From Paecilomyces variotii (lineage: Eukaryota), in NCBI GenBank assembly GCA_004022145.1, contig RCNU01000006.1: DNA of 64,000 nucleotides; one strand, 5' to 3'. A program made the translations under genes and the position numbers. The notes under the pieces were generated by a model. The model searched no databases. It was not told the DNA's origin and worked only from the letters and a program-made list of their open reading frames with translations. Shown here one piece after another: positions 10,663 to 58,400 of the stretch; position 1 is the stretch's first letter; each line of letters starts with the position of its first letter.

Positions 10663-11552
10663 AAAACCAATTTGCAGCACGATTAACGGAGTTATGGCTA
10701 TGTTTTGACGTTTTCTTTGTTTTTGAAGCTTTTTAGATAGAAAGTTCACGATAGCGGTAACTATCGGCAGAATAAAATCACGTGATGCAATTCAAAAGAA
10801 CCATTATGTCGCAAGGCAGTGCAGAAACTAAGTACCCGTCGTATCAGGTGCCTGGCTACTCAGCCAATCCGTGTCAAGAAGTAACTGCATTCTGTAGCTG
10901 TTTGCCTATGTGCTTTCTATCGGTTTTGTTGTCTTACTCTTGTCTGCTTTTGCTTCTAGGTACCTACGTTTATTCTGATCAAGAGGGGTCTGGCTTAGGT
11001 ACCGTAATTGCGACTTCTACTCTTTCCTTTCCACTAGACTGCTTAAATCTCAACCATCGTCATAAGGATTTAAAGACACGGAGAATTGAGCGGGGGATTT
11101 GAATGAAAAGTAAATAAGGCCGTATGCGAGCAGATCGAAAAGATTCTCTTTGTTGAAAAATCCATTGCGTAGCTTGGCTAGGCATCATTGAAAGACATGG
11201 CTATATTCCGTTTTCCTGTCTAACCTCTGATCGTTTGTATGGGGATCTTCTTTCGTGTCCCGAGTCCTGGCCGCTCATCCATCACCCCCTGACCTACAGT
11301 GGTTTTGATCGTACCTTTTTCATCAAAATACCATCGATTCCTGCCTACTTGACTGTGAGTTCATCTGCTCTATTAAGTTCACTAGCTTATCACTTGTCTA
11401 CAAGTGAGTTCGAGTTACCCTCCCTTACCTCACTGCCTCTTCAGGTTTATCAAGGTCTCACTTCGTCTCATCAAAACTTTGCGTCGTCTCATCGGTTTCA
11501 TCATTCTTGTGTCCTTGGAAGGTCCTAACCCGCTGTAGATAAATTGCCAGCT

Positions 11553-12321
11553 ATGGAAGACCACCAGCTTTTGAATCACAGCAACAGCGCACGTTTCTTC
11601 CATTGGCGCTATCGAGAGGTATGGACGAGAGTGACTTTCGTGGCCAAATATTAACATGGGCATAGGCCGAGAAACTCTTAAACAACGGGAATGAAGAAGA
11701 TGGCGACAAGGCAGAGGAAACATGCAGAGAACTTCTGCTGGAAGCAACGCTTCCACTATATATCCGCGCCCGATGCCATACTTTACTGGCTGTCTGCGAT
11801 GGAAACTATCTGTGAGACAATCTGCCCTTGACCCAAGTCTACAGCGTTTCTTCTGACATTATCAGTTACCACGCACGGAAAGCTCTCCACCTCTACCAAG
11901 AGTTTGCTGCTGATGAACCGCACCTAAAAGTATGGCAAGAGGGTCCCTTTGAAGAGTTCGCTGCTGATGAACCGTATTTAAGGTATGGCAAGAGGCGAGC
12001 GAGGCAATGAAGGAAATTGTTCGAGTTGCGGAGGAAGACTGGGAGAAAGAACATGGCACGATCCCTCCTGACAGCACTGAAATAGGATCAGGCGCTGGGG
12101 CTGAAGCTCAAGCTGGCCTATCTACGAGGAGCTTAGGCGAATCGACGAAAGGGCCTCTTGCAAGCCTGCAGCGCACTACTCGTGTCGGCCGTCAAAAGAC
12201 TGATGAAACTGCTACAGCCAGTGCTTTCAGTAGCGGGGATATGGAGACCTCGCCAGCTTCATCTCACGGGATACATGAAGCCGCCAGGATGGATTCAGAT
12301 GAGCAAAGTGGCACAGAGTAA
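11553..12321 (+). CDS. Small helical hypothetical protein, paralog A (4 exons)
   Basis: Exons 11553-11618, 11666-11811, 11866-11929, 11983-12321. The spliced product MEDHQLLNHS..AEETCRELLLEATLPLYIRARCHTLLAVCD..EPHLKVWQE.. is colinear with the gene at 18839. Confidence 0.75.
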
Positions 12322-12474
12322 CCAATCAGGTGAGGGAGGTATCCCGGCCTCCACGCTTAGCGGACGTGTCTCTGGCTATGTATCTACTTGCGGCCTGTCT
12401 TATACAGCTTAACTGTGTAGACTTATAAAAGTTGCCCGCGGGTAGAAGGGGTTACTATCAGAATAAGAAAGAGA

Positions 12475-18838: not shown

Positions 18839-19353
18839 ATGGAGGACGATAAGATTACTCACCTCAGCAACGCTGCTCGTTTCTTCCACGCGCAATATCG
18901 AGAGGTCAGGATACTCTACAGAGTAATTGTACTATCAAGAATGGACACTGATACGAGTGGGTAATAGGCTGAAAGGCTTATAAACAGCGATAATGAAGAA
19001 GATCAGGATAAAGCGGAGGAAATCTGCAGAGAGCTTTTGTTGGAAGCGAGGCTTCCACCTCATGTCCGTGCCCGATGCCATACCTTACTGGCAGTCTGCG
19101 ATGGGGATTATCTGTAAGAAAATCTGCCCTTCGTCTTCCCTTCACCCAAATCTACAGCGTTTCTTCTAACAGTACCAGTTACCACGCAAGGACAGCTCTC
19201 CGCCTCTACCAAGAGTTTGCTGCCGATGAACCGCACATAAAGGTGTGGCAAGAGATGGCAGAGGCAACAAAGGAGATTGTCAAGGCTGCAGAGGAAGATT
19301 GGGAGAAAGAACACGGCACGATCCCGCCTGAGAGCACTGAAGAAAAGCACTAG
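18839..19353 (+). CDS. Small helical hypothetical protein, paralog B (3 exons)
   Basis: Exons 18839-18904, 18968-19113, 19179-19353. The first two intron positions match paralog A; reads MEDDKITHLSNAARFFHAQYRE..EPHIKVWQEMAEATKEIVKAAEEDWEKEHGTIPPESTEEKH*. Confidence 0.8.
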
Positions 19354-23439: not shown

Positions 23440-24595
23440 ATGGGTTCGGCCCGGTTTTAATCCCGGTACCCTATTACATGCACGGGTACTATTTTGTTAA
23501 CTTTCTTTCTACTACATAACCTTTTTGTGCTATTAGGACATCCTTTTTTTTCGCATAGCGGCGTGTGGGCATACCCCTGTTTTTATTCCCCTTTTTGATA
23601 TATGTGGGTGGTTTCTGTTTTCCGATTCTCTTTCCGTTGCGTTACCAAAAGAACTGCCTATGCAAGATCATGCTTGAACCAGGATCGGGTTGATCTAGCA
23701 GCCTGGCCAAGTCAAACTACACAACGCCTTTCTGTCATCTTACTAAAGATGGCTTGCAACATGGCGAAGAGATACTCTCGCGAGTCCCTCCTACCCCATT
23801 GTTTTTGATTACTGGGTTTTTTATGTATGGATTTCCTTTGTTCATAATGTCTCTGAGCAAGTTATGACACCTATGCTTCCCAAACGACCTCTTGATGCCC
23901 ATTCCCGTTAACCCACCCCCCTTGCCTTCAAAAAAGACCCCTCGTCGCCCAATATTTGCCTGTACATAACTTTACCTTGACAGCCTGGTGGACATAGATG
24001 TACGTCTAGTGGAATTTGAATGACCCGAGTATGACTTAGTTAATGACAGTGGATTTTGACATTGGTAGCGAGTCTAAATACATTTACAGAGAAGCATGTA
24101 AGTTCTCATCTAAAAGTCCAAATAGGTGCTTCTGCAAGATTTGAGCAGAGCATATCTCGATATGATCTACTAGAATGTGACAGGAACAATCAACGTGGGT
24201 TGAGTTGTATCCTGCAAACGACTCCTTTGAGAATGCTAGTTCGAGTTGCAAGGCGGCATACATCTGCGGAAGTTCATACTAAGTAAGGGAGTAATTGTTC
24301 GCGTTTGAGTCTTCGCCACTCCCTATTTGACCAGTATTTTCGTTGTCGATCTTCTCCTTGCACGCCGTATGACCAGAGAACATCATTACGCGGATTATAT
24401 TACGGCCATCATATCACATCCAAATGATTTATATTTTTTTCTTCTCTGAAAACAACTCATAGACCATGTACCCCCACCTAAGCAAACTCCCCCGCTAACA
24501 CCAGCACATCACGCCTAACATCAAACGAGAACTACTCGCAAGTTCGACACTCAGATGCCACTTCAACGGTCGCGATGGCTTCAGCTTCCAGCACC

Positions 24596-25111
24596 TTAGA
24601 TCATCAGTCTCTCGACCTGGTTCTTGACGGCCTGGATCTGGTTGTTGAGGTCGGAAGCAGCGTTGGTGGTGATAGAGCAAGCGATAACGGGACGGCTCAC
24701 ACCGCACGCACGTCCAAGAGCCTATATTTTTCCATCTGTTAGCAGATGCGCGAATGAAGATACCAATATGACGGGTCTCAGCAGGGGTATTACCATCTTG
24801 CTAGGGACGTAGACGTAGGGAACGTTCTTGTCCTCGCAAAGCAGAGGCAGGTGGAGGAGGATAGCGAGAGGAGTAGTGTCCGCAGCGAGGATGACGATCT
24901 CGGAGACACCACGGTTCAGGGTCTTCGTCGCTTCGTTTGCTCCCTTCTTGATCTGGCGGTAGTGGGAGCCCTGCTGGACGAGGTCAAGGATAGTCTGGGT
25001 CAGAGCCTCGTCGGCGACGGGCCACGCTGTGAGAATACAAGTCAGTATAAGAACCAGACCCTCCACTAAAGAAAATGATTGGAACGTACCAGCATTAGCC
25101 TGGTCAGACAT
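24596..25111 (-). CDS. snu13: Snu13/15.5K kink-turn binding protein (U4/U6.U5 and box C/D snoRNP), 3 exons
   Basis: [79 protein letters not shown]. Confidence 0.97.
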
Positions 25112-25672
25112 GGTTGTCAAGAGTTGGATTCAAAGAAGAAGTTTAGTCGAAAGGTTCACTGCCTCTGCAAATATCTGGCAATGGCTCGCCCTTCGCTTTT
25201 GGATGTGGTTGTTCGACGGAATGTGGTAGTCGTTTAGAGATCGGGACGTTCAAAAAAAAAAACCTATCGTCGGCTCTAGATCTGTCGGTCCGTTTGTTTC
25301 TCCGAGATCCAAGTGCCGTTGACCTTTTGTCACGTGATGGGCCGGGCTTAGTGCGTGGAGCGGTTAGATTGCTTTGGGTTTAGTCTTGCGGATCGTTGCA
25401 CACCTTAAATCTATGCCGCAGGGCTCAATCTCGAAGCATCCAGTATTTAACCTACATTCTAACGAACATGCTTCTGGTATCCAAAAGTAACTAAGAGGAA
25501 AGTGTAATATGTGAAGCTGTATGAGATTTCTAAGCGTGTCCCTTGCAAAAAACGGTTTGAAGGCGGCTTGCACGTTCCTTACTCTGAGTCACGTGACACT
25601 ACTATCCCTTCTAGGCAGCTTCTGCAAACAAAGAACTTCCATATATTCCAGAATAACATTACCATTTTTAAC

Positions 25673-25898
25673 GGGGAGTCCAGATGGCGCAGTGGTTACG
25701 AAAGTAATCACCGCTCCATCTAGCTGGAGGCTTCCTGTTCGAAACGGGGTCGGCGCGAAGAAACTGGAGCAGAAAAAAATGCTCTGGCTAGTACTCGACG
25801 CCATAACCCCGGAGTAAAACCCTGCCCGCCAAAAGCAAGGTGGGGTTTTCGTAGCACATCAGATTCCCTATAGGAGCGGCTGATGTGTGAGCTTTTTT
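25673..25898 (+). ncRNA. Candidate RNA polymerase III-transcribed structured ncRNA with tRNA-like promoter boxes; family unassigned
   Basis: A box TGGCGCAGTGG at 25685-25695; B box in a 5-bp stem with a TTCGAAA loop at 25733-25749; TATA-like ATATATT about 30 nt upstream; four further hairpins; TTTTTT at 25893-25898. Confidence 0.7.
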
Positions 25899-27360
25899 GT
25901 ATCTCGTTTAACCTGAGTTGATTTCCTTTTTTGGAAGTTAGATAGCGCAATGACATAAAGTTGCAGTCTTAGTAGATACAAGTTTAGTCTATTCTAGATA
26001 AAGAATAGCTATCTTTATCTCTTGTTCGCGTGATTTACATACCTTAGTTTTACTCGCAGTATGCCTTATCTTTTGTATACATCTTGCAACTCGATGCTAG
26101 GGAGTTAAAGAAGAAAACTTACGAACTAAGCGATTAAGCCGATATTAACTAAACAGAGATGTATCATTCCTCATGTAATGTATATTTCTTATGCACCTAT
26201 ATTTGCCTCTGTGCGAGCAATATCTATCGAGTCTGAGGTTTACTATCACTCGTTTATCTGGAAGTGGAGTTCACTACAAGGCTTTCATAAATATCGCGAA
26301 AGACTCGAGACAAATAGCTATCTTACCTGCTTAAGGGGATAGATTATTACATTATAGTGGCGAACAATATCAGAAAATATGTGCAGTTGCCTAGAGGGTT
26401 ACTCATGACAATAAATTATGTACTTGTACTGTATTCGATCTGCGACTATTCCCTTACCGGTCTTACAAGATACTATACATATGCTTTTCTCATATTACAT
26501 GGCCAGTCCACTTCAAATCAGGTAAATTATCAGACACACATTAGAAACATCTAATTATTCGCAATTCAAGGGAACAACCCCTGCTTCTTCTGGGAGACTC
26601 TGTAGAGCGTATAATGCGACGACAGTATCCGGGGCGGAAAAGACCTGGCTAGGAAGACAAACATACGCTGCGCGCAGCCAGTCAGTTTGTATCTAGATGT
26701 GTCATGGCGTAAAAGCGAGGCGATGTAGCTGTTCGATTGTTCAAGTACATAGGTATATTTACTCGTGGAAGAGGATTTTAAAGGTGGATTTGATCCAAAT
26801 GGCAAATGAGTAAATATCCAGTTATGACATGCCACCAAAATCCTTCGAAACGTATCGCAGAGTATACTCTGGAGACAGGATGATGTCAAGGTTAACCTGG
26901 TATGGTCCGCTTGCATCTTGGGTCAATTCAGCCTGTTTCATGACCATGCCCATGATATCAGTATGATCTTCCAACAAATCCATTCGATCCTGATTCTTAT
27001 TGTGAGAGGCTTGTCATTTACCGACAAACCGGTGTATATGTGGTGTGGCATAGCGACTCGCTTCAATACGTCAGCGTACATCTGCATAAGTTGCCACACG
27101 GATCTGATAAGCATCACAACTATCTTCCACATCGAAAAAATAAGAATAAGCCGCCGTTGACATTGCGTATGCCACTAGAAATTGAAGATAGAGCACGTGA
27201 TTGTTGTTTAAGATATCATCATAGCTTTTCCATCCTCGATTGTGGCGTTTTTATAGCCGAACCCATCACCGTCAATTGCGAAGCACAAGACACAAAACTC
27301 ATTGTTATAACGAGATATCACCTGCTCAATATATACTCCAAAGCACCTTTTCTATACAAG

Positions 27361-55100: not shown

Positions 55101-56483
55101 AGGAGATATTCTATATTCCTGTATTTCTGGAACCATAGCCGAATTTTTCTTTTTTTTCTTTTTTTTTTTTCAAGGCTTACTTTTTCTCCACTGGTGCTTT
55201 TGGTTGTCAAGGGAGAGAAACCGGTCAAGGCTCAAGCTATCTCTCCGTCCGTTATCAATCCAACGCCAAGCATCAACCCATCGTTGGATAGATAGTTCGA
55301 GTTCTGCCGCTTTCTATCGGAACTTCCGGATTGCCTTGTATGTTTCTTGCTGCCTCTTGAAACATGTCTTGCCGTTAGAACATGCTAGCACCACGGCCCT
55401 ATGGCAGTATGACTTGGCTTCCCCTCTAGCAGAGTGGCTAAGTGGAGGCTAGTTCTCTCAAGTCTCGCTCACTATTGATTAAGGCGACCAATCTAGAAGA
55501 GAAAGCAAAAGAAAAAAGCCTGGACCCCGCAGCGAAAGTCGAGCACGTATCTCAAGGCTATCAGATCTTCGACATCTTTGTGGTTCTAATATTAGCATCA
55601 TAGATGTACTGGTACAGTACCAGTATCTCTGTGCGTTAGTTAGTTGCTGAAGTACGAGGACGTAGGCTAAATGTCCACACTGGTGGACATTTTTGATGTG
55701 CGTTCTTTACAAAGATACCCACGGGATCAATTTCACGGTCCAATGTTCGGTAGTTGGGTTAGTGAGGTTGACAGACTGCAGTGCGTCGAGTTATCCTGCT
55801 TTTCTGTATGTCTAGAATCTCGAGGACCCGTCGCACAACAACAATCGCCTAAAACAGTATAATGGTAGCGAGATGACATCAAACTGGAACCGCGAGACGA
55901 TCATTTCCGTCTAGCCACAGCCTCCAAATACGTACTCTACGGGTTCTGCTCAAAATCATTCGAGAATAGTTAATAGAGAATTCCCGTAATATGGTACAGG
56001 CGGACGCAGATATAACTAGTACCATACGGCCACCCCGAGCACGCTGAGTCGCGACTGATGGCAAAAAAAAAAGGCTCTCACATTGCGCCGTGCACTGCCA
56101 TGGAGGGGTTCCGTGTTGCATCGACGATCATTCATTCCGGGTCCTCACCCTGAAAGAGAGAGGGTCGCGAGAGCGCGTCTGTTATCGAAGACCCTCGATA
56201 GCATACCTCAATTATGCATATCCAAGACCCAGGATGGCGGGAGATCTTATCGATAGTCCACCACACATGCCAGCGTCAGTTATCGCAGAATAATTTCGAA
56301 GAATTAGAGTATTTCTTGGTATTTATGGTATTATCTCAAGCCACGAGCGATGATGCCACATGAGACACCAACGCAACCACGGGTCGCGCTTGCCCGCATT
56401 CCGTCCCGAGGCGGAACCCGCTGTGAAATAATGGACTGGTCTGATTTGCCCGGTGACAAGTAAATCCTGCCTTGGTCCCTGAC

Positions 56484-58400
56484 GGTGGGTGGTCGCGAGG
56501 TCGCGAGGCGGCGTCTCGCGAGGTGGCGAGGTTTTTGTTACCAGTTAGATTACTAGTAAATACGAGTGTATTAAAAATGAATATATATTAATAGGGAATA
56601 AAATCAAAATAAAGCGGCGGGGTGGTAAGTACAGGTAAAGGGATCTCGCGGGGCGGAAGAGGGAAGGCTGTGGAGGGGAGACGGAGAATGACGAAAGGGA
56701 CTAATAGAAGGAAAATAGTGAGGGAGAAAGGTACAAGAGACCACCCCGCGAGACCAGGAAATACTGTAGATCTGTATGTAAAAGAAGCAAGACAGGCGAG
56801 GAGGGCGACTACAGAAAGCGGGAGGGACGAAGAAGAGGGAATGGGGGGAAGAAAGATTAAAGAAGAAATAGTGAAGAATAGGAAGAGGTAGAAAGAGAGT
56901 AGAAGTGAGATAGAGAGGAGGGACGAGAAGGGAAGAGAGGAAGGGAGAAGGAAGAGGAAAGAGAGGCGCGCGGGGGGGCGAGAGAGATAGGAGAAAGAGA
57001 AAGGAGAAGGAGAAGGGGAAAGGGAAAAAAGAAGAGAGAGGAGAAGGGAGAGGAAGAGAAGGGAAACGGGAAAGAGGAGAAGAAAAAGAAAAGAGAGGAG
57101 GACGAGGAAAGAGGAAAAGAAGGGAAAGAAAAAGGAGAAAAAGGGAAAAGGAAGAGGAGGAAAAGGAGAAAGAGGATAGAGGAGGGAAGGAGGAGGAAAG
57201 AGAAGAGGGGAAAAGGGTAGGAGGGAAGGAGGAGGAGGGAGAGCGACGGGAAGAGGAAAAAAAGAGGAGGGGGAGGGGAAGGAGAGGAAGAAGGGGAAAC
57301 GCGAGAAGAGGGAGGAAAAAAAAGAAAGAAGGAGAGGTCGGGGAGAAGGAGGAAAGAGGAAGAGAGGGAAAAGAGGAGTAAAGAGAAGAGAAAAAAGAAA
57401 AGAAGAAGAGGTAGGGGGAGAAGGAGAAGAAGGAAGAAAGATGAAGGAAAGAAAAGAAAAGAAATAAAAGAAATAGAGGCTGTGAGAATGGAGGAAAGAT
57501 GAAGAGAAATTGAAAAGGTAGGAAGGAAATTAGGAATGAGAGATATGGGATCAAATAAAGAGAAATAAATATATATCCAGTTGTAGTTTAATTTATATAA
57601 AAAGTAACTATATAATATAGAATAAAATAAATTAAATAATGATACTATTTATGTAAATAATAATATAGTTTAATCTGTTATTTAATATAATTTATTATTA
57701 TTGATATTATTTTAATGATTTTACTGTTAGTATTACTTTTTAGTATTTTATATTAAATATTAAAGTTTAAATTATTATTAAATTATATATTATTCTTGTT
57801 TAAATTTAAATTATAATATACTTTAATATTTATATTATCTATATAAGAAAAAAAAAAAGAGAGAATATATTTAATCTTAAAGTATTATTAATTATACTTA
57901 ATATAATTAAATATTATTAGTAAAATACTAATATATTAAATAATACTAATATATTAATAAATATTAATATATATTAATAATCTATTATTTAATATTTATT
58001 AAAAAATATTAAATATTATTAGTAAATCCAGATTTATTTAGTAGCACTAATAGCCTGTATTTGCTTAATTTTAATACAGATCTAACAGTTATTTACTTAG
58101 TCTCGCGGGGTGGTATAATAGTAATTTATAACTAAGCTATTTTAATAGTAATTAGACTTTATTAATAAAACTAGTAATATTTAGTATAAAATACAAAAAT
58201 TACAATCTTACCGCCCCGCGAGATAAGATTTACCTGTACTTACCACCCCGCGAGATTTAAAAATTTTAGATTTTATTCTCTATTAGTATATATTAGTATA
58301 ATTTTAATATAAAATAATAATTTACCAGTAACCTACTGGTAACAAAAACCTCGCGACCTCGCGAGACGCCACCTCGCGACCTCGCGACCCATATAACCGA
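56484..58400. mobile_element. About 1.9-kb fold-back/long-TIR DNA element relic, extremely AT-rich, flanked by the 9-bp direct repeat GTCCCTGAC
   Basis: GGTCGCGAGGTCGCGAGG..GGTTTTTGTTACCAGT at 56491 is mirrored at 58335-58390. GTCCCTGAC occurs at 56475-56483 and 58401-58409. CCCCGCGAGA subterminal motifs repeat in both arms. Confidence 0.8.

Follow-up and report, generated by a model that had tools for sequence, protein, structure and literature searches.

The 64,000-nucleotide (nt) stretch of Paecilomyces variotii DNA analysed here and called the window (GenBank assembly GCA_004022145.1, contig RCNU01000006.1) carries on its plus strand, at 25670-25898, what we take with a probability of about 0.72 to be an independent gene. 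Its product would be a small folded RNA, about 226-229 nt long, and with it the first member of an as yet unannotated family of fungal RNAs would be recognised; the locus and its relatives probably mark an undescribed class of fungal RNA. A first-pass annotation, made from the letters alone, had proposed at this place a functional structured noncoding RNA with a transfer RNA (tRNA)-type promoter and without a known family. The proposal is supported by the lack of Rfam and tRNA matches, by contigs from RNA libraries and by a conserved gene family. RNA polymerase III (Pol III) dependence, the mature 3' end, the helix closing one of the domains, protein binding and function are all points that we infer, and they are worded as such below.

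A shared plan with probable promoter and terminator

The gene is preceded by a TATA-like box (TATATT, 25642-25647, +), 26-31 nt 5' of 25673. Further upstream lies the motif CAAACAAAGAAC (25625-25636, +), which is common to close relatives and may be a promoter element. The letters AACAAAGAA also stand 5' of the gene in a closely related metagenome locus, L002, and in two loose-end consensus strings from contigs of relatives in sequencing run X19, before 25641/25642. The A box, TGGCGCAGTGG (25685-25695, +), lies at nt 13 of the gene and has no mismatch to the consensus TRGCNNAGTGG. The B box, TGTTCGAAACG (25736-25746, +), follows 51 nt past the A box, with two mismatches to the consensus GGTTCGANNCC; inspection of the sequence gives TCCTG-TTCGAAA-CGGGG at 25733-25749. 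Both boxes are placed as in type-2 Pol III genes, where the A box lies about 8-20 nt past the start and the B box 30-100 nt past the A box. At the other end, GAGC and a run of six T (25889-25898, +, with the T6 at 25893-25898) make up a conserved 3' boundary and a probable Pol III terminator, and a second T6 at 25927-25932 (+) is a possible back-up terminator. The A box, the T-arm and B-box letters, the upstream TATA-like run and the T6 had all been named in the first-pass annotation, and each is present where it was placed. The RNA element is single copy within the window.

This plan is shared by 15 family genes of 188-305 nt, namely the window gene, L002 and 13 paralogues described below. 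In a permissive scan for TATA-like sequences (TATA[TA], CATAA or TGTAT), 13 of the 15 genes have such a box 31-41 nt before the first G; according to the alignment it is displaced by an insertion in L006, and in L019 it lies at -50. A GGG(G) at the 5' end is common to the family genes. An A box with at most two mismatches is found at nt 7-13 in 14 of them and a B box with at most two mismatches in all 15, the A-B spacing being 43-103 nt. In every gene a helix can form between the 5' end and the letters that immediately precede the B box, at -12.7 to -26 kcal/mol. The motif G(U/C)G(U/C)G(A/C)GC, followed by at least four T, ends 14 of the 15 genes; L009 has TTTC, and one gene has GAGCC. By eye, further T-runs are seen in the T-rich 3' flanks of most genes (for example L001, L002, L003, L008, L029 and L042). 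Transcription by Pol III is suggested on the grounds that the A and B boxes are positioned similarly to those of tRNA genes, that a TATA box lies upstream, that a T-run marks the exact end of conservation and that back-up T-runs follow.

Upstream of the start, the paralogues have in common discrete boxes separated by unrelated spacers: GGGAGCCCTCCCC at about -80, the TATA box, and CAACAAGAAC directly 5' of GGGG. The form (CAC)GGGAGCCCTCCCC occurs about 70-90 nt 5' of L001, L003, L006, L008, L013, L015, L016, L031 and L042, and resembles the proximal sequence element of small nuclear RNA (snRNA)-type promoters. The contig of L042 also holds a 5S ribosomal RNA gene (12343-12439, +; Rfam, 53 bits, cut by the contig end), about 700 nt from the paralogue at 11349-11633 (-); the (CAC)GGGAGCCCTCCCC box is not found upstream of this 5S gene. 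Past the T-run, the paralogue alignment shows no shared sequence.

Homologous genes and the invariant core

Relatives first appear among assembled contigs of two sequencing runs, X16 (DNA) and X19. At 85% likeness or more, these contigs match only two blocks, 25641-25743 and about 25814-25861, and the relatives have 28-30 unrelated letters between 25743 and 25816. About 20 or more contig ends in X16, whose flanks differ, break off at the borders of 25816-25857, a stretch of 42 nt, and this pointed to a deeply conserved core. Metagenomes were scanned with an IUPAC pattern of the core hairpin that left the TTTTCGTRRC tail free, and 66 loci were obtained. Of these, 37 continue with TTTTCGT(A/G)(A/G)C and collapse to 14 distinct genes, and the other 29 are unrelated hairpins, typically bacterial terminators, such as one after a tRNA gene. 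The extended core pattern has no match in viral contigs, and in prokaryote genomes it finds one chance bacterial terminator.

One of the 14 genes, L002, is closely related to the gene in the window: blastn gives identities of 84-100% over three blocks and nothing outside the gene. The other 13 are diverged paralogues of one fungus. A single assembly accounts for twelve of them, on contigs of 39-908 kb, one of which (126 kb) carries two; three contigs of another assembly have the same coverage, 13-14. Around the paralogues are short split open reading frames (ORFs) that match the DEAD-box helicase, GH29 fucosidase, phosphatidylserine decarboxylase and sugar-transporter families, which is what a eukaryotic and probably fungal genome would be expected to show. 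The homologue set was gathered with the core pattern itself and samples two lineages.

The invariant core (25816-25857, +) consists of an 11-bp hairpin, AAAACCCTGCC/GGTGGGGTTTT, with a 12-nt loop, and then CGTAGCAC. Across the family the hairpin reads AAAACCCUGCC / GG(C/U)GGGGUUUU and is followed by CGU(A/G)(A/G)C. Core stem and tail are identical in all 15 aligned genes, an identity which for the stem is partly forced by the search pattern. This hairpin and its tail, which had been listed in the first-pass annotation without being singled out, form the most constrained element of the RNA. The middle part is lineage-specific, and the 13 paralogues carry another module there, GCGATGG..GGTCATTACC..GCTAAC. 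The GGCG..CGCC hairpin with its GAA/AGUA internal loop, earlier highlighted as a loop E motif, turns out to be the least conserved part of the gene: it is absent from L002, from the X16/X19 relatives and from the 13 paralogues, and in the X16/X19 relatives and in L002 a different hairpin of 28-30 nt stands there. The T-arm that had been proposed around the B box is well formed in most paralogues and is not kept at the RNA level in L002. The apical part of the 5' hairpin differs in relatives, with GUGG/CCAC kept in L002 and apparently (by eye, in a loose end) in one X19 contig.

A tRNA-like A/B-box head joined to an unrelated body, in multiple dispersed copies within one fungus, is also what a tRNA-derived short interspersed element (SINE) or a decayed copy of one would look like, that is, an internal Pol III promoter with no cellular function. 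The fungal SINEs known as AfuSINE2 have just this kind of head and body at low-copy dispersed loci, and low-copy tRNA-related SINEs are reported in Aspergillus fumigatus (PMC5063351). The window gene is moreover flanked by a 6-nt direct repeat, TTTAAC, at 25667-25672 and 25907-25912. However, this repeat is within chance, by eye no repeat flanks L002, and there is neither a convincing target-site duplication nor an A-rich or simple-repeat tail in the family. None of the eight AfuSINE2 sequences printed in that paper has the core motif, as judged by eye (PMC5063351). Strongly diverged family members keep their helices by compensatory change and, unlike fungal SINEs, have a fixed terminator and covarying stems. 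The paralogues also keep boxes upstream of the start (at about -80, TATA and CAACAAGAAC) and share nothing downstream. Retroposition does not copy upstream promoter elements. Since upstream promoter boxes are shared and nothing is shared past the T-run, the paralogues are better read as genes than as SINE copies, and a SINE origin is very improbable.

Predicted fold and covariation

The 226-nt stretch folds on the plus strand with a minimum free energy (MFE) of -96.5 kcal/mol, compared with -70.6 +/- 4.6 for 200 dinucleotide shuffles, none of which folds as well (z -5.59). The minus strand folds more weakly (-86.1 kcal/mol, z -5.08), and the 354-nt transcript form described below folds at z -6.47. 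The four hairpins drawn in the first-pass annotation are exactly those of the MFE fold: the 5' hairpin with a GAAA loop, GGCG..CGCC, AAAACCCTGCC/GGTGGGGTTTT and CACATCAG/CTGATGTG. In this fold a first domain (25673-25736, +) is formed by the long 5' hairpin, which holds the A box and has a variable apical part. A variable middle domain follows (25745-25811, +), in which CGGGGU..ACCCCG encloses the GGCG..CGCC hairpin with its GAA/AGUA loop. After the core comes a variable 3' hairpin, GCACATCAG..CTGATGTGT (25854-25888, +). The B-box letters GUUC (25737-25740) pair with GAGC (25889-25892) in both the MFE fold and the consensus fold. In the window the CGGGGU/ACCCCG helix is a competitor for the 3' strand of the T-arm. 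Neither in the window gene's folds nor in those of the homologues does one end of the RNA pair with the other, and single-sequence folds give the same two-domain layout in most members.

With RNAalifold, the 15 genes yield three helices: the B-box pairing GGUUC/GAGCU before the T-run, the 11-bp core hairpin, and the base of the 3' hairpin. The share of alignment cells that pair in these helices is 97.1%, and 94.6% in shuffles. Two-sided changes are counted in six pairs where 1.1 would be expected, and none of 500 shuffles reaches six. When the partners are slid by 1-3 columns, only 38-57% of cells pair. All six compensatory pairs lie in the 3' hairpin helix, where six of the eight pairs show two-sided changes that keep the pairing. 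The domain-closing helix between the B-box GUUC and GAGC is plausible in these models and unproven. Arms of the 5' helix pair at -18.2 kcal/mol with their cognates and at -15.5 kcal/mol with non-cognates, a modest difference, so that this helix is compatible with the data and not proven by covariation. No consensus fold of the middle module of the paralogues was found; by eye it contains a small hairpin whose loop reads (C/G/A)AUU, with a single compensatory variant, in L019.

Transcripts

In 20 of 24 sequencing runs, half or more of the words sampled from the locus are present, and six of these 20, metatranscriptomes from three studies, contain 70-83% of the words. The contigs of four runs (the RNA runs X12 and X13, X19 and the DNA run X16) were placed on window positions 24500-26500, and transcript ends were taken from contigs, not reads. 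A 376-nt contig of X12 (record 2; depth 240) extends with one mismatch from 25670 to 26020. A 389-nt contig of X13 (record 9; depth 39.5) extends, also with one mismatch, from 25670 to 26023 and then continues with 23 non-genomic A. Position 25670, 28 nt past the first T of the TATA box, is the 5' limit of both and the likely transcription start. RNA libraries thus contain the locus, with a 5' limit that is reproducible, and the captured species is 3'-extended and polyadenylated. The extension (25899-26023, +), which ends in the poly(A) run past 26023, is not conserved: there is no similarity to L002 beyond 25900. X12 and X13 have no contig cover at 25237-25638 and past 26041, and this missing cover is not counted as evidence.

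Both libraries contain RNA of the divergent neighbour on the minus strand. It had been labelled SNU13, a label consistent with the Pfam match of its middle exon to the L7Ae family (PF01248, E 7e-18). In X12 and X13 its contigs show splice junctions at 24720/24793 and 25026/25090, with GT..AG on the minus strand; since this splicing is correct, the two runs carry RNA of this organism. The mRNA seen at 24500-25231 (-) has introns 24721-24792 and 25027-25089 removed, and its 5' end lies about 440 nt from the start of the RNA gene.

A second RNA is present in the same two libraries, as a 280-nt contig of depth 8.5 in X12 and a 64-nt contig of depth 157 in X13. It matches the window only over the 33-nt stretch 25708-25740, with three mismatches; both flanks differ, and an A-box-like AGTCCAGATAGTGCAGTGG stands before the match. 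This RNA, which is expressed as well, comes either from a paralogue or from the orthologue of another fungus in that food sample.

Observations that weigh against the proposed gene

Several observations count against an independent Pol III gene with an end at the T-run. The only transcripts seen pass both T6 tracts, to 26020 and 26023, and one carries 23 A; a clean Pol III product would fit this read-through and tailing less well than an RNA polymerase II (Pol II) product or a read-through form of minor abundance. Before 25670 the X12 contig has a loose 23 T and CG, and the X13 contig has 12 loose letters that are the reverse complement of 25740-25751. These loose ends could be real, or they could be library artefacts that arose by tailing or by a strand switch at AACGGGG, which both places share. 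It may also be that a single campaign lies behind the two studies in which the 5' limit is clean, and the contigs of the random-primed run X19 span both boundaries (25560-25843 and 25814-26368), so they give no ends. Covariation is seen in one helix only and comes mostly from single sequences, with a shuffle control that ignores relatedness. The closing helix of B box and GAGC is almost invariant on both sides, so no covariation is possible there, and the part of the core-stem identity that is owed to the search pattern belongs on the same side of the balance.

The promoter motifs taken alone are also within chance. In the 64-kb window the A-box consensus occurs three times against 0.8 expected, and AGTGG..GTTCGA once against 1.1. 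The A-box consensus is matched twice, with overlap, at 55427-55445 (+), where neither a B box nor a T-run is close by; both matches are probably due to chance. At the RNA locus the observation stands above chance because of the fold z-score and because the whole layout is conserved in 14 other genes.

The low motif counts, together with the good fold of the minus strand, would suit a locus without RNA function, be it inverted repeats clustered by chance or a region of the SNU13 promoter with a regulatory role at the DNA level. Such a locus would hardly recur in other fungi amid unrelated surroundings: a tblastn search with SNU13 finds no match in any of the 66 loci, the flank of L002 (702 nt) being too short to judge. 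Nor would it be expected to conserve a TATA box and T-run in one orientation, or to be present in RNA contigs, and this explanation is barely credible.

The transcripts themselves suggest another possibility, a Pol II polyadenylated noncoding RNA of about 354 nt (25670-26023) or an snRNA-like RNA of the Sm class. Its T-run would be an internal Sm-like U-tract and its A and B boxes structural remnants. The X12 and X13 contigs run through the two T6 tracts to 26020/26023, the latter ending in 23 A, and the TATA box stands 28 nt before the start. When the 354-nt form is folded, a further stem-loop appears after the U-tract, which lies between hairpins only in that form. Yet this downstream hairpin is not conserved, since the similarity of L002 ends at 25900 and the 13 paralogues share nothing past the T-run. 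In 14 of the 15 genes the T-run is in the same place after G(A/C)GC, with further T-runs downstream, as is expected for Pol III terminators, and the A and B boxes hold their tRNA-gene-like positions in 14 and 15 genes. Complementary DNA libraries may have favoured a minor poly(A)+ read-through form of a main product that ends at the T-run. A Pol II or Sm-class RNA is therefore considered unlikely, and the gene ending at 25898 is kept as the preferred reading.

Comparison with known RNA classes

Searches of Rfam and for tRNAs, which the first-pass annotation had asked for, give no known family. Rfam 15 (4227 models) was searched at the gathering score and at E<=10. At the gathering score there is no match in the window. 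At E<=10 the surroundings of the locus give chance-level matches only, MESTIT1_2 and a snoR27-like match at 25896-25982 (-; E about 5-6), the latter rejected as chance. The 14 homologous loci show no match on the family genes and one match to the unrelated 5S gene. The Afu_* models of Rfam, which we take to include Afu_182 and Afu_309, do not match the window at E<=10. ARAGORN calls no tRNA in the window and none in 33 loci.

Like tRNA genes, the window gene has a perfect A box at nt 13 between a TATA box and a T-run, and its B box lies in a T-arm-like hairpin, which in the 13 paralogues has a 5-bp stem and a UUCGAAU loop. Unlike tRNA genes, the family is 188-305 nt long, with no cloverleaf, acceptor stem or anticodon arm; these differences and the lack of an ARAGORN call or an Rfam tRNA match lead to the rejection of a tRNA identity. 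The 5' domain is probably derived from a tRNA.

A coding reading is likewise rejected, as a 78-amino-acid ORF on the minus strand shrinks to an unrelated 38 amino acids in L002. A guide RNA with a variable antisense box is rejected as well, the variable parts being hairpins. A scan for bacterial-type promoters and terminators has no relevance to a eukaryotic locus.

The signal recognition particle (SRP) RNA (7SL/scR1) is a Pol III transcript, as the family RNAs would be, and resembles them in the combination of TATA box and internal promoter, in length and in a structured 5' domain with GUGG. It differs in its long helix 5, which joins the ends of the RNA, and 13 genes in one fungus are foreign to it. 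No SRP covariance model matches the window at either threshold, and none matches the 14 homologous loci; the same holds for the Rfam models of RNase P and MRP RNA. Vault and Y RNAs are not indicated either, with no Rfam match and with RNA ends that stay unpaired in the folds.

The gene could still be a divergent SRP, RNase P/MRP, vault or Y RNA, or one of the "Afu" RNAs of A. fumigatus, that is unseen by the Rfam models. Its size, its hybrid promoter of TATA and A/B boxes and its U-tail recall SRP and vault RNA genes. Afu-182, -202, -309, -336 and -448 are described as abundant intergenic RNAs of 130-320 nt without a class (PMC2377427). Several of these class-less RNAs, of 220-320 nt, are conserved among Aspergilli, and for Afu-182, -202, -309 and -336 conservation of structure is reported (PMC2377427). 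In all, 15 A. fumigatus RNAs without a class are given there by flanking locus numbers only (PMC2377427). However, none of the 4227 models matches the window or the 14 homologues, and 13 paralogues in one genome would be unexpected for SRP or RNase P/MRP RNA. Moreover, afu-182 adjoins insA and not SNU13 (PMC12633037), and the quantitative PCR primers for afu-202, -309, -336 and -448 are by eye unlike the core (PMC13015456). Nothing in the neighbours or primers given leads to this locus, in a comparison made by description and by eye. In sum, a known class in disguise is improbable. No description of such an RNA family was found in full-text literature, where the Afu RNAs and AfuSINEs were compared by eye and without supplements, and the RNA may possibly have been cloned earlier under another name.

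A possible mode of action

On the preferred reading of an independent Pol III gene, the A and B boxes, acting through TFIIIC, and the upstream TATA box would direct Pol III to a start about 28 nt past the TATA box, and transcription would stop at the T-run after the conserved GAGC. The RNA would then fold in two domains, the first being the long 5' hairpin with the A box. In the second, the B-box GUUC and the 3'-terminal GAGC would pair to close a domain that holds the lineage-variable insert, the invariant 11-bp hairpin with UUUUCGUAGC, and the variable 3' hairpin. A conserved partner would be likely to bind at the invariant hairpin and its tail, and the 3' U-tail might be bound by La or Lsm-type proteins.

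The RNA may act as the scaffold of a small ribonucleoprotein (RNP), as vault, Y or viral VA/EBER RNAs do. We hold this with modest confidence, on the likeness of the patterns. The suggestion is drawn from the promoter-bearing domains, the invariant hairpin with its single-stranded tail, the varying peripheral hairpins, the U-tail and the presence of 13 genes in one species. In vault RNA/nc886 and viral VA/EBER RNAs, too, A and B boxes lie inside stems, a TATA-like element and a U-run are present, and the length is 100-300 nt. Several diverged paralogues can occur in one species, with a presumed role as RNP scaffold or regulator. In contrast to these RNAs, the 5' end in our family pairs with the segment before the B box instead of the 3' end, nothing in them corresponds to the invariant core hairpin, and no Rfam Vault model matches. 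To our knowledge, the major vault protein is absent from fungi. A more complete picture, tentative and in our estimate somewhat short of an even chance, would be that of a fungus-specific class of abundant Pol III RNAs that form an RNP of their own. The hairpin with UUUUCGUAGC would be the protein docking site and the 5' domain both promoter and mimic of the tRNA elbow, so that fungi would have, expanded to 13 genes in some species, an equivalent of the regulatory RNPs of the vault, Y or 7SK type.

Filamentous ascomycetes include major food, industrial and pathogenic fungi. As far as we know, their Pol III transcriptome is essentially uncharted beyond tRNA, 5S, U6, SRP and RNase P/MRP RNA. If the preferred reading is correct, a conserved and apparently well-represented RNA would be added to the list of Pol III genes as a new entry, present in at least two fungal lineages and with 13 genes in one of them, and would offer a handle on a new RNP. 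The locus also supplies a compact candidate Pol III promoter (TATA plus A/B boxes) and terminator from a food-fermentation fungus, and the alignment of 15 genes is a ready basis for a new covariance model. Should the RNA prove to be a Pol II read-through product or a known RNA in disguise, the family alignment would still close an annotation gap.

Other features of the window

Elsewhere in the window, positions 1-190 are occupied by a tandem array of about 12 copies of the 14-nt unit GGCGGACTGCACCT and its variants. A segment of about 400 nt is duplicated at 11662-12081 and 18964-19341, 7.3 kb apart and with 80-89% identity. At 56890-57480 there is a long purine-rich (GA/GGA) tract of low complexity.

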